DNA from: Escherichia phage vB_EcoM-E33
Length of the DNA: 64,000 nucleotides
Strand: one strand, 5' to 3'
Sequence record: OL780484.1
The position numbers and the translations under genes are program-made. Positions 13,850-56,766 of the stretch are shown piece after piece (within the stretch, counting starts at the first letter, position 1; each line of letters starts with the position of its first letter). The notes under the pieces are model-generated. The model searched no databases and was not told where the DNA came from. It worked only from the letters and a program-made list of their open reading frames with translations.

Positions 13850-15913
13850 TTAATTCCTAGTAGGAGATTCTAAACAAGGTATGCAAATGGAAAGGGATGG
13901 AAATGCAATCGTTAAACCGAATATTCCCAGCATCTTATTAATCCATTGTACCACCTTACTTAAGGATAATGTTGATATTTGGTTATACATTGATTTGCAC
14001 AAGTCTTTCATTGACCTGGAACCATCAGTAAATTCGTGATATAAAGATTTTGCTTTAGTTACTGAGTTCTCGTATATAACCATGATATCATCTACAGTAG
14101 CTCCGAGCATACCGAGAAGTTCTTCCATTTGAGCCACAATAGGAAGTTTTTTGAATTCTTCTAAAGCCATATCTAATACATCAGAAACGGAGGTTTGACT
14201 TTCGGTAATAGAGTTCTTAATCTGATTATATTTATTCTTTAAAAGTTCGAGTGCAGCTTCAGCTTGTGCTAATGCGGCTTCCTTCTGAGCAGTTAGCTCG
14301 TCTGTAACTTTTTCGTACATTCCTGAAAGATATTGTTTAAATTCAATAGCTTGTTTTTGTACTTCTTGCTTTTTGAGCTTAATCTCATTCCACAGATTGA
14401 GTGCCTGGGTTTTAAGAGCCTCAATCATTGCATAAGCTTCGTCTATTTTCTGGTCTACCTTTTCCATAACCATTTGATAAACATCTGATGCTGTGAATCC
14501 TGGAAAGTTACCGCTCATTATCATGTCCAGTGGTTTAACTTGCTTCATCATTTCCTTGACCGCAGTAATAACGCTCCAAACTGGGTTCGGAACTATAGGA
14601 GGCATACTCCATATTTGAGCGAGGTCTACACACAGTTTTGATAATGCAACACCAGCCATAAGCAATTGAGACCAGGCCCAGTCATACAAGTCTGTAATTG
14701 CATCAATAAGGTCACGCGAATACATCTTGACGCGTTCAACCGAATAATCGTATGCAGACCCAATGGCAGAATAAATCGATTGGATGGTTTCTTCTAAATT
14801 AAAGTTTTTCCATGCTTCTTTTAATTTCTGTACACCATCACCTGAAGTGCAGAGGTCTTCTAGGTCAATAGTCATGCCCATAATAGTAATCGAGGGTAAA
14901 AAGCTTTTAAGTAAGTCCCACCCACCGCCAACAATATTCAAGACCTGTGATATGGCATCTTTAAATGCAAGAAAAGCCATTTGCTGAACATATTGACACA
15001 TAGCAACAGCTGAGTTGCCTAGCTCTTCCATTGCGACCGATAGCTTACTATAACCAGAATCGAAGAATTTTTCCCAATCGGTTCCACCAGATGATGGCCA
15101 TCCAGGGAGCATATCCCAATATAATTTGAATGAATTCCTAGATGTATTCCATGAAGCCATAATCGCATTGGTCAATCCGTTGTAAGGGAATTCCGCTGTA
15201 AAAGGAACACAGCTTATTGCCCTGGCTCGCCCGGTTATTTCTGGCGGTAAAGACCCGATGGATACCGGTCCCGGAATCGGAGTTCCTGGGATACTCATAT
15301 CAACATCTAGATTTAATACCAGTCCAACATAAGTACAAGGTTTTGTCTCATAGTACTTCAAATAAGCCCTGCGGGAGTCACCAAGGCCGTTAAAGTTGAC
15401 ATACATATGATAATCAGCCGTAACTGCAATCATCGTCCTGGGGTCCATTCTGGGGCCTTGTGATGTCCATACACCGCCACAGTTTTCGATGCGATACATA
15501 TCATATTCAATAGATGTTTTATACAATACAGATTTTGATAAATCAGCGCCGTACCAATCATTACCGGGCAAAAGAGTTGCACCAATCGATTCTACATAAT
15601 TTTCTAAATCCAATTGCGTAATAAAGAATATTCCGAGTTTAGCACACCAGATACCTTGACTTGTTCCATCTTCCGGTGGGGGAGGTGCAGGAAAAGTTTC
15701 GGACTTATTACCAAATGGATTTTGTGTGTATAAATGTGTAGCTAGTGGAATAATCTCGGTATCCCATTCAACGCCATTCCCAGGTTGAATAAAAGCACCT
15801 GTTGGGTTATATAATTCCCATTTAACCCGGCGATATTCACCGGGTCCTACTGCGTCATCACAGGGACTTGTTACAGTCCCTACCACTTCATCAACTTTAT
15901 CGTAGTAATTCAT
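13850..15913 (-). CDS. large hypothetical protein in the gene 5.x slot (coiled-coil-rich C-terminal third, hydrophobic C-terminus)
   Basis: ORF track gives 13850-15937 with a GTG start; the ATG at 15913-15911 sits 1 nt after the gp5 stop (TAA-T-ATG) and gives 687 aa; its stop abuts the gp6 start. Confidence 0.7.
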   Translation of the reverse strand: MNYYDKVDEVVGTVTSPCDDAVGPGEYRRVKWELYNPTGAFIQPGNGVEWDTEIIPLATHLYTQNPFGNKSETFPAPPPPEDGTSQGIWCAKLGIFFITQLDLENYVESIGATLLPGNDWYGADLSKSVLYKTSIEYDMYRIENCGGVWTSQGPRMDPRTMIAVTADYHMYVNFNGLGDSRRAYLKYYETKPCTYVGLVLNLDVDMSIPGTPIPGPVSIGSLPPEITGRARAISCVPFTAEFPYNGLTNAIMASWNTSRNSFKLYWDMLPGWPSSGGTDWEKFFDSGYSKLSVAMEELGNSAVAMCQYVQQMAFLAFKDAISQVLNIVGGGWDLLKSFLPSITIMGMTIDLEDLCTSGDGVQKLKEAWKNFNLEETIQSIYSAIGSAYDYSVERVKMYSRDLIDAITDLYDWAWSQLLMAGVALSKLCVDLAQIWSMPPIVPNPVWSVITAVKEMMKQVKPLDMIMSGNFPGFTASDVYQMVMEKVDQKIDEAYAMIEALKTQALNLWNEIKLKKQEVQKQAIEFKQYLSGMYEKVTDELTAQKEAALAQAEAALELLKNKYNQIKNSITESQTSVSDVLDMALEEFKKLPIVAQMEELLGMLGATVDDIMVIYENSVTKAKSLYHEFTDGSRSMKDLCKSMYNQISTLSLSKVVQWINKMLGIFGLTIAFPSLSICIPCLESPTRN

Positions 15914-15914
15914 A

Positions 15915-17702
15915 TTAACCGACCTGTACGTTGCCACCAGATACTTTAGCTAATGAACCGCCATCCATATGCACAGTATTTGATGCGTTTAAATTAATGT
16001 TCGTCGCTGCAAAATTTAAATCTTGTTCGACATTTACATCCATATTTTGAGCATTGATTGTGGCCTTTTGTTTAACGCTTATATCTGCATTCTGGTTGAC
16101 ATTAACTGTTGTATCTTTTTCAACCGTAATATATGCTTCTTGTTCAACAGTTATATCAGCAGTACCCATAATAACTATTTTAACATTTCCTTTAACAAGC
16201 AGAGTTCCATTACCTTCTACAGTTTTGGTTTCATTCCCTCGAATATGAATGCTTTCAGACCCATCAGTTTGACGGCGCACGTTTGCCATATTATAATAGG
16301 TTTCATCGCCACCAACGTTGACTTTATTATTACCACCAACATAAGTATTTGAATCGCCTTGGGTCATATAATAACCATCGGCTACCGTCTTAGAAGTTTT
16401 ACGTCCATCAGGAGCAACTTCTTCATAACTACCGGTAGGATGGATTAAACGGTATCGTTCTTGCCCTGGGGTATTATCGAATTCTTGGATATGCCCGCCT
16501 TCAGTTTGCATGGTTTGGACATATGGATATTCGCCTTTATAACTAGAATCAGGTTCTTTAAAAAGAATCCTTGTGTCTTCTGGAGTCCACGGGTCGGCAG
16601 GGTCTGAATTTGTAGGGGCCACAAAGGTTTGAATCATTCTATACGAACGGCCATTAAATGACCTTTCTTTAGGGGCCATAATACCATATGATTCCATGTT
16701 ACCTGTGAGGATAATCATTGACACCCTTGATGCGCGACCTTTAGTTTGGTTAAACCATACTGAATTACGAGCTTCCTCAAATGCCTTTTTATAATCGCCT
16801 ATTAGCATTGCACTAAGCATTCCACGGAATTTAGCCAATCCACCTAATCCCATTTGGAAAGCCATGTTTTCAAGAGCCATTTGTCTTGAACGGTTTTCTT
16901 TATTGTAAACAGGACCTACAACACTATGCCGACCTATATCGTTTTGGACTTTTTTAAGGTCTTCTTGGAATAATTTAGAAGCCTCATCCATTGATATTGC
17001 ACCAGGGTTGCCTTTAACTTCTCGTCCTACCTGATTAGATAATATTTTGTTTATTCGATTCATATCTCTAATAGGTTGTGGTGTGATAAGGTGGCCTATA
17101 CCTATAGTAGGATAACCTTCGGTATCCCAATATACCTTCAGTCTAAGCCCTTCATCACGATGAAGCATGTTTTCTATTGTGAAATTAGGATTATCGTCTG
17201 GTTTGACTTGACTTAAATCCAACCCGTCAGGATTAATACCTACATCAGTGTTTGCATCTTGTATTACGTTAGAAGTGGCATCGTATCCAACTTCACCACC
17301 TCGGTTTAAAGCAGCAGCATCGTTACCTAAATAAAGCGGATATTGGCCTGTAGGGTCACTAAACCCTTCATTAGGATTAGCCTTCTGTCTTGAAGCGGAA
17401 CCGTATGTACCAAGGACAAGTCCGTTTAATTTCCACTTATCAAGAAAGTGACCATAAACTTGTGTACCGGGGACCATACCAGTCATAGCGGTTTGGATAC
17501 CTGAAACAGAGGCAGAAGATGTAGGCATTAATACCGACATCCATGGTAAATCTTCTGTACGAAGGCCTTTTACAGGGCCTTGTACTTTTTCATATGGATG
17601 CATACCCCATACGCGCACGCGTACTCGGCCTTGTTGGAGTGGGTCCATACGGTCTTCAACCACCCCTACGAACCAACTGACATTATCAGACATGTTAATC
17701 AT
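15915..17702 (-). CDS. 5: baseplate hub/cell-puncturing spike with lysozyme domain gp5
   Basis: 595 aa; N-terminal WFVGVVEDRMDP; lysozyme motif DEGL..WDTEGYPTIGIGH; C-terminal repetitive VxVxQ beta-helix segment. Confidence 0.92.
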   Translation of the reverse strand: MINMSDNVSWFVGVVEDRMDPLQQGRVRVRVWGMHPYEKVQGPVKGLRTEDLPWMSVLMPTSSASVSGIQTAMTGMVPGTQVYGHFLDKWKLNGLVLGTYGSASRQKANPNEGFSDPTGQYPLYLGNDAAALNRGGEVGYDATSNVIQDANTDVGINPDGLDLSQVKPDDNPNFTIENMLHRDEGLRLKVYWDTEGYPTIGIGHLITPQPIRDMNRINKILSNQVGREVKGNPGAISMDEASKLFQEDLKKVQNDIGRHSVVGPVYNKENRSRQMALENMAFQMGLGGLAKFRGMLSAMLIGDYKKAFEEARNSVWFNQTKGRASRVSMIILTGNMESYGIMAPKERSFNGRSYRMIQTFVAPTNSDPADPWTPEDTRILFKEPDSSYKGEYPYVQTMQTEGGHIQEFDNTPGQERYRLIHPTGSYEEVAPDGRKTSKTVADGYYMTQGDSNTYVGGNNKVNVGGDETYYNMANVRRQTDGSESIHIRGNETKTVEGNGTLLVKGNVKIVIMGTADITVEQEAYITVEKDTTVNVNQNADISVKQKATINAQNMDVNVEQDLNFAATNINLNASNTVHMDGGSLAKVSGGNVQVG

Positions 17703-18796: not shown

Positions 18797-19620
18797 GTAT
18801 ATTTTCTTACATCAACGAGGCTACTGAAACTACAAAAGGTTCCAAGCCTACTCGTTCAGAACAACAATGGATAACTTTAGGCGTTGAATATGCCAACGCT
18901 AAGGCTAAAGGTGTTTCGGCTAAGAAATTCGCTGAAGATAAAGGCATCAAGTATTCTAGCTTTACATCTGCGATGTCTCGATACTCGAGTCGAATTAAAA
19001 CTGCTGTACAGGTTGAAAAACTTCAGAAGAAACCTGGCAATAAATTAACCAAAGCAGAACGTCAATTAATTTTGGTGAATAGTTTTAGAAAGAGTATTCG
19101 CGATAAGATTGCTAACGAAGGCGCTGCCGTAAACAATAAATCAGCTAAATGGTTTACAGAAACATTAAAGAAAGGAATTCGTGGACACCAGGTATCTAAA
19201 CCGTCTCCTGGTAAGCTTTATGCTTATATCTATGATGCCAAACATAAGGATACCCTACCATACTGGGACAAATATCCTTTAATAATTTATCTTGGGTTAG
19301 GTAAGCATAATTTAATGTACGGACTGAACTTACACTATATTCCACCTAAAGCACGTCAGCAATTTCTGGAAGAATTGCTGAAGCAATACGCGAGTACGCC
19401 TACCATTACGAACTCGACTAAATTAAAAATCGATTGGAGTAAGGTAAAAGGATTCGCTGGCGCCGACGTGATGATTAAGGCTTATATCCCTGGAAATATT
19501 AAGGGACCTTTAGTAGAGATAAAACCGTCTGATTGGGCTAATGTAATAGGATTACCACTTCAGCAATTTGTATCGAAAGGTAAGCGTTATTCAGCTCAGA
19601 AAGTTTGGAAGAAGGCATAA
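18784..19620 (+). CDS. 2: probable gp2 (DNA end protector), assigned by position
   Basis: 278 aa basic protein between gp4 and gp3, size close to T4 gp2; alternative start ATG 18793 overlaps the gp4 stop (ATGA); no motif recognised. Confidence 0.55.
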
Positions 19621-20270
19621 TGAATTACCAGAAAATATATTCTTCATTAATTACACGTGCTCAAGGACGAGCACTATCCTGTTATACCGAATCTCATCAT
19701 ATTTTACCTAGATGTATGGGTGGAGGTGATGAATCTACAAACTTAGTTGATTTAACTCCTGAAGAACATTATTTAGCACATCAACTATTAGTTAAAATGC
19801 ATCCAGGACATCCTGGTCTAACTTTTGCAGCTATGACAATGACTCAAGGCCCTCGTCGTTCTAATAAGCTTTACGGCTGGCTTAAACGTAAGCACTCTGA
19901 GAATATCACAGCAACCCAAACAGGAAAGGTTTATTATAATAATGGCAAGAAGTGTATTAAGCTGTTTCCGGGTGAACCGATTCCTGAAGGATTTGTAAAG
20001 GGACGAGGATGGAGTCCTACAAAAGGAACCACTCATGATAGGAATAATGGCCGTTTTGCCAATAAAGAACTCCAAGCGGAGCTTTCTAAACGGAGATGGG
20101 ATAAAGCCAGAAAGGAAACTTGTGAACAATTTGGTGTGGATACTATAGAAGAGGCCAAGGATATGGTTCGGGCATTTAAAGCTACATGCCACGAAAGATA
20201 CTGGATAAAACCAACTATAGCCAAATGGCCTTTTATGACACCAGTAAGACTACGTGAATTTATAAAATAA
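19620..20270 (+). CDS. HNH homing endonuclease (free-standing), copy 1
   Basis: YTESHHILPRCMGGGDESTNLVDLTPEEHYLAH is an HNH motif; start taken at ATG 19620 overlapping the gp2 stop (TAATG); ORF track start 19605. Confidence 0.8.
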   Translation: MNYQKIYSSLITRAQGRALSCYTESHHILPRCMGGGDESTNLVDLTPEEHYLAHQLLVKMHPGHPGLTFAAMTMTQGPRRSNKLYGWLKRKHSENITATQTGKVYYNNGKKCIKLFPGEPIPEGFVKGRGWSPTKGTTHDRNNGRFANKELQAELSKRRWDKARKETCEQFGVDTIEEAKDMVRAFKATCHERYWIKPTIAKWPFMTPVRLREFIK

Positions 20271-20352: not shown

Positions 20353-20943
20353 ATGAACGGTTTATTTAACCAAACTAACACTACTAACTTTATCTTAGAG
20401 GTTAGTGACGCAGGAATGACACAGGCATTCAAATTGAACGTACAAGATGTAACACTACCGGGTATCCATATTCCGGTCTCAGACGTCCCAGGATCGACCC
20501 AGGGCATACATCGTGCTAAGCTGCCAGGTTCTACTGTAGAATTCGACCCATTGATTGTGAACTTTCTTGTGGACCGTGAATTGAAATCATGGCTTGATGT
20601 TTATAAGTGGATGTTGTCATTAAACAACTATGTAACCCATGATTCAGAAGCCTGGCACCCTAAAGGACAACCGGAAGCTATCACCCTCCACATCCTTGAT
20701 AACAACAAACAAAAAATCGTAATGAGCATTCATTACTACGGTGGTTGGCCATCCGACCTCTCGGAAATCCAGTACTCTTATAAAGAGGATTCTGACCCGG
20801 CGATAATCGCCACAGCAACATTCAACTTCAAATCGTTTGCTGTAGAAATAGATGGTACAATAGTTACAGGTCGTCCACAAATTGATTCGTATGCCGAACA
20901 ACGAGTGGCTCGTATGTCTATGCATCCATCTATGAGAAAATAA
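20353..20943 (+). CDS. 3: probable gp3 (tail tube terminator), assigned by position
   Basis: 196 aa ORF between gp2 and gp1 as in T4; no motif recognised. Confidence 0.5.
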   Translation: MNGLFNQTNTTNFILEVSDAGMTQAFKLNVQDVTLPGIHIPVSDVPGSTQGIHRAKLPGSTVEFDPLIVNFLVDRELKSWLDVYKWMLSLNNYVTHDSEAWHPKGQPEAITLHILDNNKQKIVMSIHYYGGWPSDLSEIQYSYKEDSDPAIIATATFNFKSFAVEIDGTIVTGRPQIDSYAEQRVARMSMHPSMRK

Positions 20944-21693
20944 TGAAACTAATATCAATTGTAGGAATCAAACGTAGCGGTAAGGATACCGTTGCTAACT
21001 ATGTAATCGAAAATATGGATTCGGTAAAATTTCAGCTCGCAGGTCCTATTAAAAAGTATCTGGCTGAAGCCTATGAATACATCTCTGATGACCCTGTATT
21101 CGACCGTAGTTACATGCCTAAACTAGATTTTAACTGTTTTGAAGGTATCGGTTACGACCGTGAAGAAATCCTTCCTTTAAAACCAGATGATGTGATTGAT
21201 ATCTTTGAACATGCTATTGTCAAACTGAATAATATCCTTCCTATTCCAGGAATTGATACCGTAACTACGTATCATTATGGTCCTACCATTCAATATCTGT
21301 CTGAAGAAACAAAAGACCAACTGTTTGAAGTAATAAATAAAAATAACAATTGGTCAGTACGTCGTCTCATGCAGACCCTTGGGACTGATATTATTGTTAA
21401 CCAATTTGATAAGATGTATTGGGTTAAGTTGTTCGCTTTAGACTATTTTGATAAAATATACTCTGATGCGAAATACTATGTCGTACCTGATGTTCGTCAA
21501 ACACACGAAATTGATTCGCTCAGAGCGATGGGTGCTACGATTATTCATGTAGTTCGCGCTGAAACCGGTCAAGTACAAGACTCGCACATCACTGAAGCGG
21601 GTCTACCAATTTTACCCGGTGACGTTGTTATTGAAAATAACGGCACTCTTTCTGAACTATACACCACTATTGATAAATTATTAGGAAATAAAA

Positions 21694-36891: not shown

Positions 36892-37100
36892 TGAAAATTG
36901 AAAGTTTACAAGATTTCCAGCGTATCATCGGTGAAGCCTGTACTGGCTACCACAAATACTTGCTTGACGACCAAATGGCTTGTCTCGAAGAAGGTGAAGT
37001 ACAGTATGCAGCCCAACGCCTTGAACAAGTGAAAGAGTTTTACCCTGTACTGGTAGAAATTTGTTCAGCTGCTGGAAAACTTACCCCATTCCAAGAATAA
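36891..37100 (+). CDS. hypothetical protein
   Basis: ATG 36891 overlaps the upstream stop (ATGA); ORF-track start 36849. Confidence 0.5.
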   Translation: MKIESLQDFQRIIGEACTGYHKYLLDDQMACLEEGEVQYAAQRLEQVKEFYPVLVEICSAAGKLTPFQE

Positions 37101-37104
37101 AGCA

Positions 37105-37133
37105 GTTTACATCTCCTGTAGACGTGGTACTAT
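37105..37133 (+). promoter_or_regulatory. early promoter inside stem-loop
   Basis: GTTTAC 37105-37110, 17 nt, TACTAT 37128-37133; same arms atctcctgtag / ctacaggagat as the 34294 cassette. Confidence 0.6.
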
Positions 37134-37161
37134 AGACCTATCAACTACAGGAGATTACAAA

Positions 37162-37620
37162 ATGTCAGAAATTAATTCAGAAGTATTCATCCGCCGCAAT
37201 AAATTACGTCGTCAGTTCGAAACCGAATTCCGTGAACTGAATACGTCCATCAAAAAAGCCGCCATCAAGAGCGGAGTCCCAGCCTTCTTTATTAAGTACT
37301 CTAATCACTTGTTGGACCGTGCTATCCAACGTGAAATCGACGAAAAATACGTTTTTGCTTTATTCAAGCAACTCCATAACCATGTTAAAGAAATTCATGA
37401 ATTTTTAATCCAGGAACCTCTACCTGATGTAGAATCCGAAATTGTCCCTGGTAAAGTGTATCGTCCATTGCGTCTCGAAATTACCGATAAAACCTTATGG
37501 CTAGGTATGACAGTAGACCGTAAACATCCTGATAAAGGATATTCCCTTAAATGTCGTATGGCATTTGTTAACTCTAAACGTTTAGAAGGTAAAACCAGCA
37601 CGAAAGTAATCTATCTTTAA
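37162..37620 (+). CDS. hypothetical protein
   Basis: SD aggag inside the hairpin 3' arm, then ATG; 152 aa. Confidence 0.55.
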   Translation: MSEINSEVFIRRNKLRRQFETEFRELNTSIKKAAIKSGVPAFFIKYSNHLLDRAIQREIDEKYVFALFKQLHNHVKEIHEFLIQEPLPDVESEIVPGKVYRPLRLEITDKTLWLGMTVDRKHPDKGYSLKCRMAFVNSKRLEGKTSTKVIYL

Positions 37621-37632
37621 TAATGAGGTCTC

Positions 37633-38172
37633 ATGAAAAAAGTATTAGCCACTTTACTATTGACAGTTAGTATGTCTGCCCATAGCGTAGAGCCTACTTT
37701 CAGTAATGAACAACTCGATAATTTACATTATGCGTATGCTTTCGGTGAACAATACCAAAAGTCGGGAAAGTTCAAAGAAAACCCTAATCAAAAAGGATTA
37801 GGATATATTATGGCCGGATTACTATGGCAGGAATCATCTGCCGGAATTAATCAGGGTTTAAATAAAGATAAGCACCATGCTTATGGCATGTTCCAAAATT
37901 ACTTGCCTACGTTAAGAAGTCGTGTTCAACAGGTAGGTTGGAAGATGTCTGACAAAGAAATAATTCGTATGGTCCAAAAACGACAGAACAGTGCCTCTTG
38001 GGCCTACATTGAACTGTCTTATTGGATTGATGTTCACAAAGGTGACCTGAGAAAAGCGATTGCTTCTTATAATGCGGGCTGGAACGCCAAAGCAGGCAGT
38101 AAATATGCTTCTGAAGTTCTAGAAAAGGCCAATTACCTAAAATCTAAAAAGATGTTTGAGGCGGTGTATTAA
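37633..38172 (+). CDS. secreted lytic-transglycosylase-like protein
   Basis: Signal peptide MKKVLATLLLTVSMSAHS; SLT-like motifs LLWQESSAG, AYGMFQ, ASYNAG. Confidence 0.6.
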   Translation: MKKVLATLLLTVSMSAHSVEPTFSNEQLDNLHYAYAFGEQYQKSGKFKENPNQKGLGYIMAGLLWQESSAGINQGLNKDKHHAYGMFQNYLPTLRSRVQQVGWKMSDKEIIRMVQKRQNSASWAYIELSYWIDVHKGDLRKAIASYNAGWNAKAGSKYASEVLEKANYLKSKKMFEAVY

Positions 38173-42619: not shown

Positions 42620-43078
42620 ATGATTATCAATGCAAACTCTTGGCATGTTAAACTACATGACCGTTTTTATGCCAGTTATTCACGTCCGCGCTCATTATGC
42701 GCATACTTCTGGAAAATGGTTTGGGCGTGCTTTATATGTTCTGTGCTTGCAGGTAGTACTATTTTCGGCTTAACTGTTGCAGGTGCCGGTATATTGGAGC
42801 AGTTCTTTGTATTGAGTACTCCTGTTGGTTTAAGTTTAGGTTTTATTTTAGGACTGGTTACACTAGCTCTTATTCTAGCGGTAGCCGTTGGTATTGTGTA
42901 TTGTATAATGAATTTATGGTCCTGGTATGATTTACGTAAAGAAGAAAAGGAATGGCTACTAATTAAAGCTAAACGTGAAGGAAAGGAAATTAAAGAAAAT
43001 ATCGTTATTCAATATATCAAAGCTCGTAAATCTAAGGTCTGCCCTGTAATCCACTTCGAGAACAAAACAAACCCATAA
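42620..43078 (+). CDS. integral membrane protein
   Basis: Several hydrophobic helices (FWKMVWACFICSVLAGSTIFGLTVAG, PVGLSLGFILGLVTLALILAVAVGIVYCI). Confidence 0.55.
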   Translation: MIINANSWHVKLHDRFYASYSRPRSLCAYFWKMVWACFICSVLAGSTIFGLTVAGAGILEQFFVLSTPVGLSLGFILGLVTLALILAVAVGIVYCIMNLWSWYDLRKEEKEWLLIKAKREGKEIKENIVIQYIKARKSKVCPVIHFENKTNP

Positions 43079-43842
43079 TGAATTATACCAAGCTTTATGA
43101 TAGTCTAATCCAAAGAGGTAAACTTAGAGGATTAGACAAATCCAAATTAAATTTTTATACAGAGTCCCATCATATACTCCCATCATGTATTGGTGGGAGT
43201 GATGAACCTAATAATTTAGTTCTGTTGACAGCCAGAGAACATTTTATAGCACACTGGCTTCTAGCTAGAATTCATTCTGATTCTTCTGGACTAATTTATG
43301 CTTGGTGGTCGTTTTATAGCTTCGGTGAGGATTCTCTAGGAAGAAATCTTAAACTAACTTCTAGAGGATACCAATTAGTTAGAGAAAAATTTTCAGAAAT
43401 TCATTCAAATGCGATGAAAGAAATATGGAAGACTGAAGAGTATAGAAATAAACGTTCTATAACTATGAGTCTACCGGAAATAAAAGATAAAATGTCTGCC
43501 GCTCAAATAGAAGCTCAAAACCGTCCTGAAGTTAAAGAGAAAATTTCTAAAGCTATTAAAGAAGCATTTAAACGCCCTGATGTTAGAGAAAGGCATTCTA
43601 ATGCTGTTAAGAAATCTCTAAATAATCCGGAAACTAAAAAGAGGCAATCTGATGCTTCTAAAGCAAAGCAAAGAATAGGAAAACATTGGCAAGATTATGA
43701 TTTGCTTTATTCTTTATGGGTTAAATTAAATAGGCCTAAGCGTGGGGCTTTTGGTACTTATATTAGTAAATTAGGATATCCCAAATCTAACTACCAACGT
43801 TTAATTATGCAATTTATTGAAGACTATGAAAGAGGTGAATAA
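43078..43842 (+). CDS. HNH homing endonuclease (free-standing), copy 2
   Basis: YTESHHILPSCIGGSDEPNNLVLLTAREHFIAH HNH motif; N-terminal ~60 aa paralogous to the 19620 endonuclease; C-terminal repeats NRPEVKEKISKAIK / RPDVRERHSNAVKK / NPETKKRQSDASK. Confidence 0.8.
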   Translation: MNYTKLYDSLIQRGKLRGLDKSKLNFYTESHHILPSCIGGSDEPNNLVLLTAREHFIAHWLLARIHSDSSGLIYAWWSFYSFGEDSLGRNLKLTSRGYQLVREKFSEIHSNAMKEIWKTEEYRNKRSITMSLPEIKDKMSAAQIEAQNRPEVKEKISKAIKEAFKRPDVRERHSNAVKKSLNNPETKKRQSDASKAKQRIGKHWQDYDLLYSLWVKLNRPKRGAFGTYISKLGYPKSNYQRLIMQFIEDYERGE

Positions 43843-49454: not shown

Positions 49455-50465
49455 ATGACTCGTACTGAATACATCAATGCCTTTACTACGTATATCACTA
49501 CCAACACCCCTCCGTTAACCCCATACGAGGTAATAGTTTCTAATATCAATAAATGGGTCGACCAAATTGATGATGCATTATCGCGCTGTTTCAAAGCTGA
49601 AATCGAAAAGATTGCAGGCCGTTTGTGCATTCATGATATCATTAAAACATTTAAAGGTTCTCGACTGCTTTCGCGCCTGGTCAATAAGGACATCCTTTCT
49701 GAGTTCGGTAAAGAGAAATATCCAGGTTCCAACCGTGTTGTTAGCTACAAATGGTTTGGTGATACCATAAAAGGTTATATCAAAATTAAAGGTATGGACC
49801 CTAATAGTTTATTTCCGCAACGTTGGGTTAGCGAATTCAAGGCTAACTCTGCATTAATTCTCAAAGCGGCCTCTAAAACTATAGTTTCCGGTGATTGTCG
49901 TACTATTCACCCGATGGCTAATTGCATGATTAAAACAAATAGTTATAAAGGAAAAGCTATTATTTCTGTTATTTGGTCACCTAATAGGAAACCTAAAGAT
50001 GATGCGGAAGTTGTAAAGTATCAAGATATTGCTTACGATACCTTGAATACTATCGAACAAGCTTTAGCTCTGATGGATACCGTAGAGAAATATGAGACCC
50101 AAGAAGTTAAACACCACTTAGGCTGGAAAGGATATGAGGTCTTAGTAACAGTCCGTGAAATCAAATGTACCGTTCCAAAAACTGATGCTGAAATTTACAA
50201 AGAAAAATGTGAGGAAATTGTGAACACTGATAAAGAGCCTGCTACATTAGAAGATTTGATTAACGACTTGAACAGCCCTATCATGGCCCCTACACCAATT
50301 ACTAAATCCAAGTTACCGGAAGTCGTTGCCTTGGAAAAAGCGTATAAAGACGCCCTTGCTATCAACAAAAAACTGACTGGCCAATATACTGCTGCCAAGA
50401 AACTTTGGGAAGAGTCTACCAATCGTTTAGACCGTCTTGAACAGGCTCTGGAGCTGCTGAAATGA
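49455..50465 (+). CDS. hypothetical protein
   Basis: 336 aa; SD gaggag then ATG. Confidence 0.55.
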   Translation: MTRTEYINAFTTYITTNTPPLTPYEVIVSNINKWVDQIDDALSRCFKAEIEKIAGRLCIHDIIKTFKGSRLLSRLVNKDILSEFGKEKYPGSNRVVSYKWFGDTIKGYIKIKGMDPNSLFPQRWVSEFKANSALILKAASKTIVSGDCRTIHPMANCMIKTNSYKGKAIISVIWSPNRKPKDDAEVVKYQDIAYDTLNTIEQALALMDTVEKYETQEVKHHLGWKGYEVLVTVREIKCTVPKTDAEIYKEKCEEIVNTDKEPATLEDLINDLNSPIMAPTPITKSKLPEVVALEKAYKDALAINKKLTGQYTAAKKLWEESTNRLDRLEQALELLK

Positions 50466-50773
50466 AACAACGTTTAGCTGAAGATATTGCTTCAGCATCT
50501 AATACTGGTTTATTGAAATTTATTAAAGCCGCGGATGTTGAAGTTGAATTGGTTGGTAAAATTCATGGTTGTGATGATTATGATGATGCCGTTAATTGGG
50601 ATGCTGTAATGGCTATGGTCGCACGACGAGAACAAGCTTCTAAGAATGTTCCTAACTGTCCTAAGTGCGGCACAGAACAGGTTCAATTGGTCCATTGGCA
50701 GACTAGTAATCTTCGTTACAAATGCCGCCATTGTAAACATAAATTTGAGCGAGAAGAAAATGGCAAAGCGTAA
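50462..50773 (+). CDS. small C4 zinc-ribbon protein
   Basis: CPKC-x16-CRHC near the C-terminus; ATGA overlap with upstream gene. Confidence 0.5.
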
Positions 50774-50996
50774 AGAATATGTAGAGGCTGCCGATAAGGC
50801 AGTCCGCGAACTTACTTTAGCTTATTATAAAGAGCATGGTAAATTTCCGGACAGTTATTCAGTATTGAAATCTGCTTTAACTCGCTCGTATAATAATATA
50901 CTATCTGATGTGTATAATTTAAAATATGAGCACATGGAAAAATATGGAACAGAACTTGACCGTTCTGAAGCATTCAAACAAATATTAGGAATTTAA
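50760..50996 (+). CDS. hypothetical protein
   Basis: ATG 50760 overlapping the upstream gene end; ORF-track start 50646. Confidence 0.45.
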
Positions 50997-50997
50997 A

Positions 50998-51261
50998 ATG
51001 TTTAAAGTTTATGGTTATGATTCAAATATTCACCGTTGTGTTTTCTGTGATAATGCCAAACGTCTGCTTGATGTTAAGAAACAACCTTACGAATTCATTA
51101 ACGTGATGCCGGAAAAAGGCGTATTTGATGATGAGAAGATTGCTCAACTCCTGGCTGCGCTTGGTCGCGAATCTCAAATCGGTTTGACCATGCCGCAAGT
51201 ATTTGCCCCTGATGGAAGTCATATTGGTGGCTTTGACCAACTGCGAGCGTATTTCAAATGA
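50998..51261 (+). CDS. nrdC: glutaredoxin/thioredoxin (NrdC)
   Basis: 87 aa; MFKVYGYDSNIH.CV.CDNAKRLL..KKQP.EFIN.MPEKGVFDDEKIA.LL..LGR..QIGLTMPQVFAPDGSHIGGFDQLR.YFK nearly identical to T4 NrdC. Confidence 0.93.
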   Translation: MFKVYGYDSNIHRCVFCDNAKRLLDVKKQPYEFINVMPEKGVFDDEKIAQLLAALGRESQIGLTMPQVFAPDGSHIGGFDQLRAYFK

Positions 51262-51419
51262 TTGAATTAATGTTGGTTGTTTTGTATCTTATCATCGGTA
51301 TTGGTTATGCTAAGACCCTAGCTAAATTAGATGATTCAGGTGACTTTTGTTGGTGGTTGACGTCTATGATTTGTTGGCCTTTATTTCTGGTTGGTGCTTC
51401 ATTCTGGAACTTCAAATGA
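51258..51419 (+). CDS. possible 53-aa membrane peptide (not in ORF track)
   Basis: ATG overlaps the nrdC stop (ATGA); MIELMLVVLYLIIGIGYAKTLAKLDDSGDFCWWLTSMICWPLFLVGASFWNFK; its stop overlaps the next ATG. Confidence 0.4.
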   Translation: MIELMLVVLYLIIGIGYAKTLAKLDDSGDFCWWLTSMICWPLFLVGASFWNFK

Positions 51420-51724
51420 TTGAATTAAACGAACAAACCATTTTTCTAGGTGATGGTACCGAAGATGACCTGGAATATAAACTATACGAATATATGGTTT
51501 GGTTGGCTAAAGCAGAAGGTATAGACTTTGCTGTAGCCCATCCATATGGCGAGAACACTGTTGTAATCGGCGGCACCGCTTACGAAGTCCAATGGCAATA
51601 CGTTGGCCTTGAATCTGAAGAATTTGAAGAAGATGAACACGGTGATTGGCATCCAGTCGGTCCTTGGTACTGGGAACACGGTGAACCTGATTTTGAAGTA
51701 AGTAGTTGGTGGTGTGACCGTTAA
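51416..51724 (+). CDS. acidic hypothetical protein
   Basis: ATG 51416 (MIELNEQTIF...); ORF-track start 51347. Confidence 0.5.
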   Translation: MIELNEQTIFLGDGTEDDLEYKLYEYMVWLAKAEGIDFAVAHPYGENTVVIGGTAYEVQWQYVGLESEEFEEDEHGDWHPVGPWYWEHGEPDFEVSSWWCDR

Positions 51725-51779
51725 GCCATGGTATGTCGCTCGGTGGGATACGATAGAACCTACCGAGCCAGAGGAACCC

Positions 51780-51809
51780 GTTTACAACGATTCCGAAATA
51801 GAGTATAAT
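51780..51809 (+). promoter_or_regulatory. early promoter
   Basis: GTTTAC 51780-51785, 18 nt, TATAAT 51804-51809; preceded by a 10-bp stem hairpin at 51738-51768. Confidence 0.55.
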
Positions 51810-51855
51810 GAACCTTCAAACAATGATTTAATTGATATGGAATATGGGTTTTACT

Positions 51856-52032
51856 ATGAAAACTGAACTGATTTATACTGAAAAGTTAAATGGCGGTAAA
51901 GTCTGGAAACTTCTTATTAAAGGAAGTCCTACTGATCAGTTTATGGCCACTTGTGTAGGGTTATACACCCGTCCTACCAAAAAGATGATTCGTCAATTTA
52001 AACGGTTGCATCGCTCATTTTATAATGTTTAA
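51856..52032 (+). CDS. small basic hypothetical protein
   Basis: ATG 51856 (MKTELIY...); ORF-track start 51832. Confidence 0.45.
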   Translation: MKTELIYTEKLNGGKVWKLLIKGSPTDQFMATCVGLYTRPTKKMIRQFKRLHRSFYNV

Positions 52033-52070
52033 TAAATACCTATATCTAATTATTATTAAAGGTATAGGTC

Positions 52071-53144
52071 ATGCAAGATTTCGGACATTGGGCGGTATTT
52101 GAAGAAACCGATATTAAAAACCATATTGGATTTGTATACGTAATCACTTTTGAAGATGGCAAAAAATATGTGGGTGCTAAAAAGATTTGGAAACGAATTA
52201 AAGCTGCACCTTGCACATTTAAACGCGGCCCTAAAAAAGGATTTGAAGAATCTGATTGGAAAACCTATACCTCATCATCTAATGAACTAAACGCAATGAT
52301 AGAAAAGGGTATAAGTCCTAAAGAGTACCTTATTGTAGGATGGTATCCTACTTGGGGTAAAACTCTTATGGCAGAAATGGAAATGCAATTAGCCAATGAT
52401 GTTTTACGAGACCCTATGTGGCTTAACAAGCAAATTGGCGGACATTTCAACCCTAACTGCTTTGACGATTTAACCGAAGATGATATTGCAAGATGGATGG
52501 AATTTGATAAAGGGAACGAACATGTTTCCTGGCCTATGATGTACAAAATCGGTCAGAAAACCAAATATGTTAAACCTGACGAAGTTGGCAAGTATATTAA
52601 ATCTGGGTGGCAATTTGGTCGTTCTAAAACAGAAAAACATTCTGTTACCTATAATTGCTCTAAATTTACTATATGGGACTATCAAGAAAATAAAGCAGTG
52701 GAAGTTCTAAATCAAAATGAGTTTGCTCGTAATAATGATTTAAGTAGCAACCATCTAACTAGACTACTTCAAGGAACTCTCGACCTTATTAAAGATCGCT
52801 GGGGACTTCCACCAGATATTGCTCGTCAGCGTTATAAATTTCAGGACGTTTCTTCAGGAACAAAATTTTTATCTAATTCTGAGTTAGAAGAATTTTACGG
52901 TATGACTCGCGGTCAGGCTAACAAAGCCGTTAAAGATGGAAGAGCCGTTAAATTGGTAGTCGAAAGCAAAGAAGACCACATTAAAAAACTTGGCTCTATC
53001 GAATTGGTAAAAACCGAAAAGACAAAAGTTACGTCTCAAGTAATGCTTAACAGTTTTAAAGATATAGTTAATCCTATGACCACTGCCGAAAAATCAGAAA
53101 TGATTGAATGGTTGGAAAGTTATATAACTTATTTGAAATCTTAA
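52071..53144 (+). CDS. GIY-YIG homing endonuclease (Seg-like)
   Basis: N-terminal GFVYVITFEDGKKYVGAKK GIY-YIG motif; 357 aa with long C-terminal putative DNA-binding region. Confidence 0.75.
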   Translation: MQDFGHWAVFEETDIKNHIGFVYVITFEDGKKYVGAKKIWKRIKAAPCTFKRGPKKGFEESDWKTYTSSSNELNAMIEKGISPKEYLIVGWYPTWGKTLMAEMEMQLANDVLRDPMWLNKQIGGHFNPNCFDDLTEDDIARWMEFDKGNEHVSWPMMYKIGQKTKYVKPDEVGKYIKSGWQFGRSKTEKHSVTYNCSKFTIWDYQENKAVEVLNQNEFARNNDLSSNHLTRLLQGTLDLIKDRWGLPPDIARQRYKFQDVSSGTKFLSNSELEEFYGMTRGQANKAVKDGRAVKLVVESKEDHIKKLGSIELVKTEKTKVTSQVMLNSFKDIVNPMTTAEKSEMIEWLESYITYLKS

Positions 53145-53285
53145 TGAGGAAATCGCTTAAATGATTAATTTTTATGGCTACACATTTTATGCTTTAGCCG
53201 AATCTCTGAATGATGCGGTGCGTATTATGGGTGTTGAGTATCCTGCTCAATGGTTATTTGTTGTAACTAACATGTGGGTTCTTTA

Positions 53286-53501
53286 ATGAATAAATTTCGT
53301 AATGCTGTTTCTGATATCCTGGCTAATATAACATTGGTTCTGTTTATCGTATGCCTTTTAATCCTGGCTATTCCGTTTGGATTGCTGTTCATGATTATTG
53401 GTGCTCTGAGTACTGAAAAAGGTCTTGAAGGGTCCGAGTTCGACAAACGAATCCAGGCTGTTCATAGTGTTATTGCAAAAATGATGAAGGTGAAAGAATG
53501 A
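53286..53501 (+). CDS. small membrane protein
   Basis: ATG 53286 (MNKFRNAVSDILANITLVLFIVCLLILAIPFGLLFMIIGAL...); ORF-track GTG start 53274. Confidence 0.5.
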   Translation: MNKFRNAVSDILANITLVLFIVCLLILAIPFGLLFMIIGALSTEKGLEGSEFDKRIQAVHSVIAKMMKVKE

Positions 53502-53794
53502 AACGTTTTGAAGAATATGTAGCTTTGAATTGGACCGCTTGGGACAAGTTTGGTGATGATTGGTACTTCCATGACTGTGACCTGAACCCTGAATTCTTTA
53601 AAGGTAAGGAAGACGACCTCAAGGACATCTATGCTCTGTCAGAGATTCATGGTATTAAACCTACTGTCTATTTCTCTTTTGATGATACCGGGTTCCTTAT
53701 CCAGATTTACGTCCCATACGGAACTAATGAAGACGAAGTTCTAAAAACTTGGGACTACCAAGGAGTTATTTCCTGTGGACCAAAAGTTAACTAA
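53498..53794 (+). CDS. hypothetical protein
   Basis: ATGA overlap; 98 aa. Confidence 0.5.
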   Translation: MKRFEEYVALNWTAWDKFGDDWYFHDCDLNPEFFKGKEDDLKDIYALSEIHGIKPTVYFSFDDTGFLIQIYVPYGTNEDEVLKTWDYQGVISCGPKVN

Positions 53795-54092
53795 AATTGA
53801 GATTTACGGTATCCCTGAGACAGTCATGCGCTGTCCAGGGTGCATTGCTGTTCTATCGCTCCTAAATTCCCTTTCTATCCCACATACTTTCTATCCTGTG
53901 ATTAACCAGACGCCGTCAGGCGCAGTATACGACAAGCCTCTTATAGTATCATTGGCCAAACGTGCAGGCTTCAAGAGCTTAGCGATACGCTATCCTGTCA
54001 TATTTGTCGATAATAAGAAAATAGAAAATATTCCTGCCTTCAAATCGCTTTTGATTGAACTTGGTTATGACCAAGATTTAATTGAAGATTAG
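53775..54092 (+). CDS. thioredoxin-fold CxxC protein (glutaredoxin-like)
   Basis: KIEIYGIPETVMRCPGCIAV: beta-strand then CPGC as in glutaredoxins; apparent GTG start at 53775, since the first ATG would delete the strand preceding CPGC. Confidence 0.45.
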   Translation: MDQKLTKIEIYGIPETVMRCPGCIAVLSLLNSLSIPHTFYPVINQTPSGAVYDKPLIVSLAKRAGFKSLAIRYPVIFVDNKKIENIPAFKSLLIELGYDQDLIED

Positions 54093-54093
54093 T

Positions 54094-54122
54094 ATTTACT
54101 TCCTCTCCTCACGTGTTATAGT
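54094..54122 (+). promoter_or_regulatory. early promoter variant inside stem-loop
   Basis: -35 ATTTAC 54094-54099, -10 TATAGT 54117-54122; arms cctcacgtgtt / aacacatgagg, the latter overlapping SD gaggag. Confidence 0.5.
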
Positions 54123-54151
54123 CTATCCTATCAACACATGAGGAGAACATT

Positions 54152-54334
54152 ATGACTATCCAAGATAAAGAAATTAAAGCCGACCAGTATTATTTGGTAA
54201 ATGGCTACCCTGTTCAAGTAACAAAGGTAACAAATCTCGATGTATGGTATCAACCTTTGACTCACCCTGATGCTCCATTGATGGTGTGCGACCGTTCTTT
54301 ATTTTGTTCAGTAGCTAAGGAAATTAAATCATGA
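54152..54334 (+). CDS. hypothetical protein
   Basis: 60 aa. Confidence 0.45.
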   Translation: MTIQDKEIKADQYYLVNGYPVQVTKVTNLDVWYQPLTHPDAPLMVCDRSLFCSVAKEIKS

Positions 54335-54585
54335 GTCTGAAATTACATTCAATGAAAAATATCATTACCCTTAATCTGGATGATGAGCGCCTGATTTTTC
54401 TCACCGTCACTGATAAGAATATTGAAATTGCAAATGGTCCTAAGACTTATTGTTGCCCAGTGAAGAATTGGAAACATGTAACCTTTTTGACCCTGTGCGA
54501 CCGTCTGAAAGATATTAAGTTAGATTTGGATGTCAAAGATGTCCAATACATTAAAAATCTTATTGGATACAAACTGCTGAGGTAA
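54331..54585 (+). CDS. hypothetical protein
   Basis: ATGA overlap; 84 aa. Confidence 0.45.
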   Translation: MSLKLHSMKNIITLNLDDERLIFLTVTDKNIEIANGPKTYCCPVKNWKHVTFLTLCDRLKDIKLDLDVKDVQYIKNLIGYKLLR

Positions 54586-54587
54586 CT

Positions 54588-54881
54588 ATGGGTAAAACTA
54601 TTCGTCGTAAAGAATTGTCTGTAAAAGATTTTTATTATTCCGGACGTCGTAAAGCACCTGACGGCGTAAGTCAGGAACTGGTTGAAGAAAATATATTCCG
54701 TTCCGACAAGTGGAAACGTATGCGCGGTGTTGATTCTGAAGTTAAGAATGAAATGAATCGCCAACTTCGTAAAGAAGTGAGAAAGCTGAAAAAAGATGTT
54801 TACAACGACGATGAACCTGATTACAATACTTCTCATCGAGTTGCAAAACGTAAATCAAACGAATGTTATCGTTATAGCTGA
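54588..54881 (+). CDS. basic hypothetical protein
   Basis: 97 aa, Arg/Lys-rich. Confidence 0.45.
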   Translation: MGKTIRRKELSVKDFYYSGRRKAPDGVSQELVEENIFRSDKWKRMRGVDSEVKNEMNRQLRKEVRKLKKDVYNDDEPDYNTSHRVAKRKSNECYRYS

Positions 54882-54888
54882 GGAAAAT

Positions 54889-55020
54889 ATGAATATCAAA
54901 CGAATGCTTTTTAAGCAAGGACTATACACTTTAAATGTTAGTCCAAAGGGCGATACAACCACGTGGTCAGTAAATGACTGGATTAAATTCATTGATAAAC
55001 ACGGAAACTGGAAAATTTAA
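54889..55020 (+). CDS. small hypothetical protein
   Basis: ATG 54889 after SD gaggaa; 43 aa; ORF-track start 54796. Confidence 0.4.
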   Translation: MNIKRMLFKQGLYTLNVSPKGDTTTWSVNDWIKFIDKHGNWKI

Positions 55021-56208: not shown

Positions 56209-56766
56209 ATGACCGAAATTAAACTGACTAAAAATAACTATGTAAATAATAAGGAGCTTCTGAAAGCTATCACCCAATGGAAAACAGAACTCAGAGAAAA
56301 TACCGATCCTAATAAAATAGTTCGCCAGAACGACGTTATCGGCTTGGCTATTATGCTCATTGCTGAAGGACTAAGTAAACGTTTCAACTTCTCAGGATAT
56401 ACCCAATCTTGGAAGCAAGAAATGATTGCTGATGGAATCGAAGCTTCGATTAAAGGTCTTCACAACTTCGACGAAACAAAATACGACAACCCACATGCAT
56501 ATATCACTATGGCTTGTTTTAATGCCTTCGTTCAGCGTATCAAAAAAGAACGTAAAGAAATGGCAAAGAAATATAGCTACTTCGTCCATAATGTCTATGA
56601 CAGTAATGATGACGACATGGTAGGTATTGCAGATGAAACCTTTATCCAAGATATCTACGACAAAATGACTCAGTATGAAACCTCTTTAACTAAAGCACCA
56701 GGGTCTGATAAGAGTGCCGAACCTAAAGTTGGTGAACTGGATTTTTTATATGGAACATCAGATTAA
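56209..56766 (+). CDS. 55: late-transcription sigma factor gp55
   Basis: 185 aa; [71 protein letters not shown] match T4 gp55. Confidence 0.9.

Follow-up and report, generated by a model that had tools for sequence, protein, structure and literature searches.

T4 endonuclease VII, the product of gene 49 (gp49), is a junction resolvase associated with the portal; it releases packaging motors stalled on Y- or X-shaped DNA and is considered “probably essential in vivo” (PMC9958956). The enzyme (PDB 1EN7, 1E7D, 1E7L, 2QNC, 2QNF) consists of a catalytic domain (PF02945) and a dimerisation domain (PF09124). Here we describe a window, i.e., the whole analysed stretch of 64,000 nucleotides, from Escherichia phage vB_EcoM-E33 (sequence record OL780484.1). 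The window belongs to a T4-like phage of the Dhakavirus type (JS98/WG01/Bp7) and carries a gene for a GIY-YIG nuclease of 357 amino acids (aa) in the slot of gene 49. This gene shares with the endonuclease VII gene the slot itself, in four lineages, the layout of a promoter-like box and a hairpin upstream of gene 49 of phage WG01, and a helix (residues 83-97 of endonuclease VII); the role is presumed to be common too, as the carrier genomes have no endonuclease VII. The two proteins differ in fold (zinc-bound H-N-H in endonuclease VII, an unrelated GIY-YIG domain in the window protein) and in length (157 vs. 357 aa), and the window protein lacks PF09124. Judging from sequence and genome comparisons, we consider it rather probable that this homing-endonuclease-derived nuclease substitutes for endonuclease VII, cutting branched DNA late in infection.

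SegE of T4 and other free-standing Seg-type homing endonucleases are the closest described proteins by domain content. They have the same PF19835 domain (named in Pfam “Putative endonuclease segE, GIY-YIG domain”) and the same order of an N-terminal GIY-YIG domain and extended DNA-binding-like modules. Several T4 homing endonucleases also share with the window gene the layout of a late promoter and a hairpin over the ribosome-binding site (PMC2988022), and presence in some but not other close relatives is a further common trait. There are also differences from the Seg-type enzymes. The window gene replaces a host gene, and it is found in 14 of 14 records of S16-like phages. Its product is longer (357 aa) than the structurally matched Seg-like proteins (mostly 190-310 aa). 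Finally, the product ends in a helix apparently derived from endonuclease VII, and some of its relatives contain the whole dimerisation domain.

The idea of a replacement of gp49 is already in print. Petrov et al. 2010, citing Petrov et al. 2006, mentioned “putative alternative nucleases” for gp49 in phage RB16 (RB16ORF270c) and in Aeromonas phage 65 (65ORF061w) (PMC2993671). The proposal takes one sentence with no domain analysis and says nothing of the dimorphism within Dhakavirus, of chimeras or of a retained helix, all described below (PMC2993671). The homologs that we found in these two phages, at plausible positions, are RB16p243 (359 aa, 57% identical to the window protein, encoded between nrdC and nrdD, i.e., in the gene 49 slot) and ST65p046 (298 aa, 35% identical over residues 1-237); these may be the proteins meant by the old open reading frame (ORF) names. 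A comparison of Acinetobacter phages noted that gene 49 is missing from some of them and separately counted the GIY-YIG gene of Ac42 and 133 as an I-TevI-like mobile element (PMC4177764). Our literature search found no later paper on gp49 replacement beyond Petrov et al. 2010, no other paper naming the two ORFs and no experimental work on the family. The window adds a further member and a dimorphism within one genus, and new support for the replacement comes from chimeras, a retained helix, a gene 49 scar and whole-genome checks of exclusivity.

Two more distant systems are relevant. Slx1-type GIY-YIG nucleases of eukaryotes cut branched DNA, including Holliday junctions, and thus the fold can serve as a resolvase. 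The analogy is one of function alone: there is no detectable match in sequence or structure, no RING/PHD domain and no Slx4 partner in the window system. The homing endonuclease F-CphI of cyanophage S-PM2 uses the catalytic motif of endonuclease VII (PMC6083498). It illustrates that in T4-like phages domains pass between endonuclease VII and homing enzymes, but as a mirror image: there a homing enzyme borrowed the catalytic domain of endonuclease VII, while here a homing-type domain is found in the endonuclease VII slot with an endonuclease VII tail.

Alternative occupants of the gene 49 slot

The gene starts with ATG at 52071, ends with TAA at 53144 and is bracketed by the genes of the thioredoxin NrdC (50998-51261) and the late sigma factor gp55 (56209-56766). 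This agrees with the initial annotation, which was made from the sequence alone and placed a free-standing Seg-like homing endonuclease in the interval from nrdC to gene 55. The region is 98.5% identical to that of Salmonella phage ABTNLS3, whose protein is 99.7% identical to the window protein; Escherichia phage 04086 encodes a 100% identical protein.

In phage WG01 the annotated gene in the same slot is gene 49, encoding endonuclease VII of 157 aa. The window is 98.9% identical to WG01 over 50400-52053 and 99.6% identical over 53145-55000. Between these segments, where WG01 has 468 bp (gene 49 without its last 20 nucleotides), the window has a cassette with the GIY-YIG gene. Perfect identity to WG01 extends over 1,395 bp of the left flank (50584-51977) and 1,050 bp of the right flank (53145-54194). 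Of the two junctions, the right one is sharp and the left one is fuzzy, lying somewhere in 51978-52053. The stop codon of the GIY-YIG gene abuts TGAGGAAATCGCTTAAATGA, the 3' end of gene 49, and this scar also supplies the ribosome-binding site and the start codon of a downstream ORF of 41 aa (53161-53286).

We compared the left flank with ABTNLS3 and Bp7 as well. Over 51301-51977 it is of the WG01 type, with 0 differences to WG01 and 32 to ABTNLS3, while the GIY-YIG gene itself differs from that of ABTNLS3 at only 6 positions. Therefore the swap is recent and very tight. The initial annotation was right in suggesting exchange among related phages, given that the flanks match WG01 perfectly for 1.0-1.4 kb per side, and in recognizing a GIY-YIG nuclease of Seg ancestry. 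It was mistaken in describing an insertion between genes. The flanking-gene comparison that it proposed as a check does locate the slot, but what is found there is a replacement of all but 20 nucleotides of gene 49 and not an insertion site. The alternative allele, the one free of the GIY-YIG endonuclease, is not an empty site: it is occupied by gene 49 in WG01 and likewise in three other lineages.

Endonuclease VII was not detected in the 64-kb window by a search with WG01 gp49 (best E=0.45). It was also not found in the complete genomes of ABTNLS3 (171,022 bp) and S16 (160,221 bp). These genomes were searched with four diverse endonuclease VII queries (from WG01, SemperBestia, Kimel and ValKK3) and with a hidden Markov model (HMM) built from them. 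The best tblastn E-value was 0.14, and the best HMM E-values were 0.1 for ABTNLS3 and 2.3 for S16, compared with 1.5e-85 for the WG01 locus used as a control. The GIY-YIG gene is the only candidate left in the carrier genomes lacking endonuclease VII. Among the matches listed for Dhakavirus, 42 records have gp49 (at least 97.5% identity) and 9 have the GIY-YIG gene (at least 80% identity), with an overlap of 0.

The same swap at the gene 49 slot is seen in four lineages, Dhakavirus being one of them. In Pseudotevenvirus, phage SemperBestia has the order nrdC, endonuclease VII, a small ORF and nrdD, while phage Cronuts has nrdC, the GIY-YIG gene and nrdD; the flanks of the two are 98% and 90% identical. 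The Acinetobacter Twarogvirinae provide another pair, Kimel with endonuclease VII and Ac42 with the GIY-YIG gene, each preceding a small ORF, nrdH and gene 55. In Vibrio phages of the Schizotequatrovirus-like group, ValKK3 encodes endonuclease VII and D490 encodes a GIY-YIG homolog of 326 aa. The slot of the latter two lies elsewhere in the genome, between RNA ligase and head cochaperone genes on the opposite strand, and four flanking proteins are orthologous between them (42-75% identity). The homologs in RB16, in S16 and on a metagenomic contig of 71 kb are encoded directly upstream of nrdD, the position at which T4-like phages of Klebsiella have endonuclease VII. All 14 records of S16-like phages carry the GIY-YIG gene.

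The protein is 73% identical to its homolog from S16, 57% to that from RB16 and 58% to that from Ac42, values within the range of the neighbouring NrdC, NrdH and gp55. The divergence of endonuclease VII between the same groups is close (57% and 53% identity). The ratio of nonsynonymous to synonymous substitution rates (dN/dS) ranges from 0.05 to 0.23, being 0.05 against ABTNLS3, 0.15 against S16, 0.21 against Ac42 and 0.22 for RB16 against Cronuts. By these ratios, the GIY-YIG gene is under purifying selection. Because divergence is genome-like and dN/dS is low, both the GIY-YIG and the endonuclease VII cassettes look old, maintained by selection and exchanged among close relatives.

The copy in Bp7 (3638-4705) is annotated as two ORFs. 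It contains three single-base deletions, all in homopolymers (GG, AAAAAA and AAAAA), after which the frame is restored. We examined the possibility that this copy is a pseudogene and rejected it, since the three deletions sum to -3; the split is probably a sequencing error in the 2011 record.

The start of the gene is preceded by a late-promoter-like box and by an RNA hairpin that covers the Shine-Dalgarno region immediately before the ATG (Table 1). The hairpin of WG01 gene 49 is at the same place but differs in the sequence of its stem (-15.5 kcal/mol, z=-3.35), and the S16 homolog has, at the equivalent place, a stem of 12 bp whose 5' arm includes a perfect TATAAATA. In the device known from T4, the ribosome-binding site is concealed in early transcripts, and late transcripts begin within the hairpin (PMC2988022). 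If the box of the window is a promoter, a transcript beginning just downstream of it would be unable to form the hairpin; the hairpin would sequester the ribosome-binding site in longer transcripts, and translation would be late-only. The device serves both T4 homing endonucleases and ordinary late genes, and one of the supporting references concerns gene 49 (PMC2988022). Since both classes of genes use it, the box and the hairpin argue for late expression and do not separate the hypotheses discussed below. Their use as a discriminator in favour of an endonuclease VII-like role was considered and rejected for the same reason (PMC2988022).

Domain architecture and chimeric relatives

A search of a large protein collection returned 44 relatives of the window protein. 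A precomputed PF19835 match exists for 43 of them; the remaining one, the 261-aa fragment P0026, has none on record. Three metagenomic proteins are chimeras with both PF19835 and PF09124 (cut-off 22 bits): P0023 (427 aa, E=1e-11 for PF09124), P0024 (432 aa, E=6e-14) and P0025 (499 aa, E=5e-16). For comparison, WG01 gp49 has PF02945 at residues 9-96 (E=4.8e-20) and PF09124 at 104-157. With hhalign, the chimeras can be aligned to residues 77-157 of endonuclease VII (99% probability, E=8.8e-18), and P0024 matches the solved T4 enzyme (PDB 1E7L/2QNC) over residues 84-157 with E=1.4e-14. The gene of P0025 is directly upstream of nrdD, i.e., in the gene 49 slot. On the T4-like metagenomic contig carrying it (Logan SRR14300940, 11497-14732) nrdD is split, and the parts are separated by an ORF (12738-13232) for an I-HmuI NUMOD-like endonuclease, probably an insertion of the intron or intein type.

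The terminal EMIEWLESYITYLKS of the window protein aligns with DYLEWLENLLVYLKA of endonuclease VII (YLEWLENLLTYLKS in T4), the shared helix being EWLE..TYLKS, and also with the helix at the beginning of the chimera segment derived from endonuclease VII. This helix is the best tblastn match of gp49 both in the window and in the ABTNLS3 genome. The match is weak alone (E=0.45-1.2; hhalign over 15 columns, P=0.003-0.037), and we accept it because the chimeras bridge it. Thus the homology of the helix to endonuclease VII is credible as a transitive one. By length the family forms a series: a core in Vibrio and Aeromonas phages (298-326 aa), the core with the helix in proteins of the window type (357-365 aa), and these with the dimerisation domain (427-499 aa). 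The core-type homologs of Vibrio and Aeromonas phages end at ES.xxY..RL.

The PF19835 profile matches residues 10-122 of the window protein with E=9.5e-34 and 116.7 bits (cut-off 25), spanning profile positions 8-123 of 123. PHROG 7363 (“homing endonuclease”) covers the whole protein (E=9.7e-180). PHROG 447 (“NAD synthetase”) matches residues 7-127 (E=3.6e-19); its label looks misleading, and the family contains SegE-like domains. Pfam has no match of PF09124 to the protein, and there is no match of PF02945, with its zinc-binding cysteines, even at E<=10. A NUMOD domain was not detected by sequence with Pfam, and the NCBIfam search, as well as the sequence and profile searches against all PDB chains, gave no match.

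The initial annotation had reported a GIY-YIG motif at the N-terminus of a 357-aa protein, and the exact ORF, the motif segment GFVYVITFEDGKKYVGAK at residues 20-37 and the Pfam search suggested at that time all bear this out. The GIY motif is G20-F21-V22-Y23 and the YIG motif is Y33-V34-G35, on adjacent predicted strands 20-27 and 32-38; all of the 44 aligned relatives have Y23, Y33 and G35. Candidate catalytic residues are Y23, Y33, G35, K37/K38/K41/R42, Y66, E102 and N119. In the alignment of 45 relatives 16 columns are invariant, and Y23, Y33, G35, K37, K38, W40, Y66, E102, Q106 and N119 are invariant or nearly so.

We aligned the N-terminal family profile with I-TevI residues 1-92 using hhalign; the I-TevI sequence was checked to be 100% identical to the ORF of the T4 td intron. 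The strands of the GIY and YIG motifs correspond and R42 is placed opposite I-TevI R27, but the alignment is weak (P=0.078) and its first half alone is credible. E102 and N119, conserved in 45 of 45 sequences, are 17 residues apart vs. 15 for E75 and N90 of I-TevI, and in the model E102 is in helix 95-108, which follows strand 83-92. By position, spacing and secondary structure, not by a significant alignment, E102 and N119 may be the equivalents of E75 and N90. Position 42 is Arg in 32 of 45 sequences, Lys in 5, Asn in 3 and Thr in 3, and the nearby K37, K38 and K41 are near-invariant. Thus the catalytic Glu of the fold, on which the initial annotation had made its assignment depend together with the catalytic Arg, has an invariant candidate in E102, as does the Asn in N119, and the Arg has a candidate in R42 through the weak alignment with R27.

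The AlphaFold2 model has a mean predicted local distance difference test score of 82 and a nuclease domain with the order strand-strand-helix-strand-helix. The remaining part is predicted to consist of a low-confidence disordered linker (148-164), two modules of a strand and two helices each and a conserved ESKxxxxKL motif. The two modules resemble the DNA-binding modules of homing endonucleases. Foldseek with the whole chain gave nothing at E<=0.001 against PDB; the weak matches there are I-HmuI (1u3e, prob 0.63) and the DNA-binding domain of I-TevI (1i3j, E=5). Slx1, with its URI and RING/PHD domains, is not among the PDB matches of Foldseek or of the sequence and profile searches. In BFVD, viral Seg-like, intron-associated and NUMOD GIY-YIG endonucleases match over 250-350 columns with E from 1e-4 to 1e-10. 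This predicted resemblance, together with the SegE-type domain, supports the Seg-like type proposed initially. The copy in phage vB_EcoM_005 (324 aa) has an in-frame deletion of residues 137-169 overlapping the linker, which suggests that the connection between the nuclease domain and the remainder can be shortened.

Table 1. Features of the GIY-YIG locus in the window
Feature	Position	Strand	Evidence
Coding sequence of the 357-aa GIY-YIG nuclease	52071..53144 (including stop)	+	ORF list, sequence, PHROG 7363, identical and near-identical relatives, AlphaFold2 model
SegE-type GIY-YIG catalytic domain, aa 10-122	52098..52436	+	Pfam PF19835, column conservation, predicted secondary structure
Middle and C-terminal region, aa 125-342	52443..53096	+	Secondary structure of the model, weak Foldseek matches, BFVD
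C-terminal helix EMIEWLESYITYLKS, aa 343-357	53097..53141	+	Credible homology to endonuclease VII residues 83-97
Replacement cassette, 1,091 bp for 468 bp of WG01	52054..53144	.	blastn against the WG01 locus, base-level junction views
Gene 49 scar, last 20 nucleotides (..RKSLK, stop)	53145..53164	+	Identical to WG01 locus positions 3632-3651
T4 late-promoter-like box AATAAATA, 7/8 match to TATAAATA	52031..52038	+	Sequence; common to the region upstream of WG01 gene 49
RNA hairpin, 10-bp stem (52038-52047 with 52060-52069)	52038..52069	+	RNA fold -10.3 kcal/mol, z=-2.0

Probable substitution for endonuclease VII and the competing explanations

The replacement of gene 49, the lack of endonuclease VII in the carriers, the presence of the gene in all S16-like records and the existence of chimeras argue for a functional stand-in rather than, or besides, a selfish element. 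According to the reading that we favour, a descendant of a Seg-type homing endonuclease would have taken the gene 49 slot, its upstream layout and, most probably, the job of gp49. The job of gp49 is to cut branched DNA (Holliday junctions and Y-branches) in the replicated and recombining concatemer, which keeps the packaging motor from stalling. In GIY-YIG chemistry one active site would nick one strand, and paired cuts would need two subunits. These could be brought together by PF09124 in the chimeras; in proteins of the window type, the retained helix or the packaging machine might do so. The window protein may thus cleave branched DNA as a dimer, or act with the packaging machine via its endonuclease VII helix.

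Several observations weigh against this reading. With extended DNA-binding-like modules after the GIY-YIG domain, the protein has the predicted architecture of a homing endonuclease directed by sequence. The PF19835 subfamily takes its name from SegE of T4, for which homing is proven. The sporadic presence in Dhakavirus (9 vs. 42 records among the matches listed) and the identical flanks are also expected of a homing element. The window protein has no dimerisation domain, and in the homologs from Vibrio and Aeromonas phages (298-326 aa) the terminal helix is missing as well; therefore a common mechanism of dimerisation cannot be assumed. The position of the catalytic Arg is not strictly conserved, R42 being Arg in 32 of 45 sequences, and the alignment with I-TevI is weak (P=0.078). 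Foldseek, sequence and profile searches of PDB found no significant match to Slx1 or another solved GIY-YIG structure. Finally, defects in T4 gene 49 can be partly suppressed by lowered recombination, and endonuclease VII may be dispensable in some backgrounds.

It is possible, though we do not consider it probable, that the protein has a dual function, i.e., that it substitutes for endonuclease VII and still homes, with a target in or next to gene 49, so that mixed infections would convert endonuclease VII alleles. All evidence for the functional replacement applies here too, and homing would explain why cassettes alternate at one slot in several lineages. The swap recurs at the gene 49 slot despite the different neighbourhood in ValKK3 and D490, the chimeras look like products of repair with junctions inside gene 49, the 20-nucleotide scar remains, and the homing-endonuclease-like modules are kept. 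The left junction is no more than about 75 bp from the cassette and the flanks are otherwise of the WG01 type; so tight an exchange tract is compatible with homing but not diagnostic of it. However, both alleles persist (42 vs. 9 Dhakavirus records among the matches listed) with no sign of a sweep. An old polymorphism that ordinary homologous recombination has reshuffled would explain the genome-like divergence equally well.

A still more tentative proposal, which we regard as rather improbable in its entirety, joins these elements. A Seg-type homing endonuclease would have been domesticated into a phage resolvase of Holliday junctions and branches via a captured tail of gene 49, and the chimeras, the window type and the Vibrio/Aeromonas type would be stages of one series. 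The protein may still home into gene 49, thereby uniting an essential function and a selfish drive, and two non-homologous resolvases would be alternative alleles in several T4-like lineages.

We find it quite unlikely that the gene is a purely selfish, free-standing Seg-like homing endonuclease that cuts a site in phages lacking it, is copied by repair and gives no benefit, the loss of endonuclease VII being tolerated or covered by other nucleases. The SegE-type domain, the structural resemblance to Seg-like, intron-associated and NUMOD endonucleases, and the presence of several other homing-endonuclease-like genes in the window and its relatives fit such an element. So do the presence and absence of the gene among near-identical Dhakaviruses, where the 100% identical flanks indicate a very recent transfer. 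The late promoter and the hairpin are also typical of T4 homing endonucleases (PMC2988022). But the gene replaces one described as probably essential, rather than being inserted beside it; the complete genomes of ABTNLS3 and S16 do without endonuclease VII; and the distribution in S16-like phages (14 of 14 records) is not sporadic. Furthermore, the copies are intact, conserved in length and diverged in step with the genomes under purifying selection, and an in-frame fusion to the dimerisation domain of endonuclease VII is of no obvious use to a purely selfish enzyme.

That the gene is a decaying remnant at the site of a deleted gene 49, as the two ORFs of Bp7 and the 33 residues missing from the vB_EcoM_005 copy might hint, is effectively refuted for the window copy, which is intact with dN/dS of 0.05-0.23 and 16 invariant columns across 45 relatives, while the Bp7 deletions are all in homopolymers with the frame restored (most simply a sequencing error) and the vB_EcoM_005 deletion is in frame over the low-confidence inter-domain linker.

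Databases label the family “homing endonuclease” or “hypothetical protein” (RefSeq, PHROG 7363, the SegE-like Pfam domain), and genome papers list its carriers as lacking gene 49. If the protein is indeed a debranching enzyme of packaging and recombination, this would fill what appears to be a gap in the quasi-core genes of T4-like phages. It would also be a natural case of a catalytic module of a homing endonuclease recruited to a housekeeping role, with chimeric intermediates still present in nature, and a simple system for studying how a normally monomeric GIY-YIG nuclease, which cuts one strand at a time, resolves four-way junctions. The annotation of therapeutic phages is concerned as well, S16 and Dhakaviruses being candidates for therapy and biocontrol. 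If the gene is merely selfish, it would follow that T4-like phages can live without endonuclease VII.

Other endonuclease-like loci and variable segments of the window

The initial annotation counted two further free-standing HNH enzymes in the window. This is roughly right: two ORFs on the plus strand, 19605-20270 and 43078-43842, match a “homing endonuclease” family, PHROG 655 (E~1e-56), with weaker HNH matches (PHROG 12434), and both are Mob-like putative homing endonucleases with no Pfam match at 1e-3. The first is flanked by the homologs of gp2 and gp3 both here and in ABTNLS3, while the region of the second (43066-43838) has no counterpart at the matching place of ABTNLS3.

ABTNLS3 in turn has endonuclease-like cassettes of its own. 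An extra ORF of 231 aa (37097-37792; PHROG 314, E=6.5e-20), similar to homing endonucleases, is located directly upstream of gene 55 and overlaps it; it is absent at the window junction 56150/56227. A gene for a “NUMOD3 domain-containing DNA-binding protein” (20876-21613) is found beside tk, where the window junction 39227/39363 measures about 136 bp, and this is another endonuclease-like cassette present in one genome and absent from the other.

Two more segments of the window differ from ABTNLS3. About 1.1 kb at 24704-25806, containing ORFs 24738-25202 (PHROG 2280, unknown function) and 25226-25801 (DUF7338, E=5e-63), has no ABTNLS3 counterpart at the matching position. The baseplate gene region includes an ORF of 695 aa on the minus strand (13850-15937) with no Pfam match at E<=0.001; there the segment 13859-16181 is 2.3 kb long vs. 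about 1.0 kb in ABTNLS3 (167812-168857) and is either divergent or replaced.

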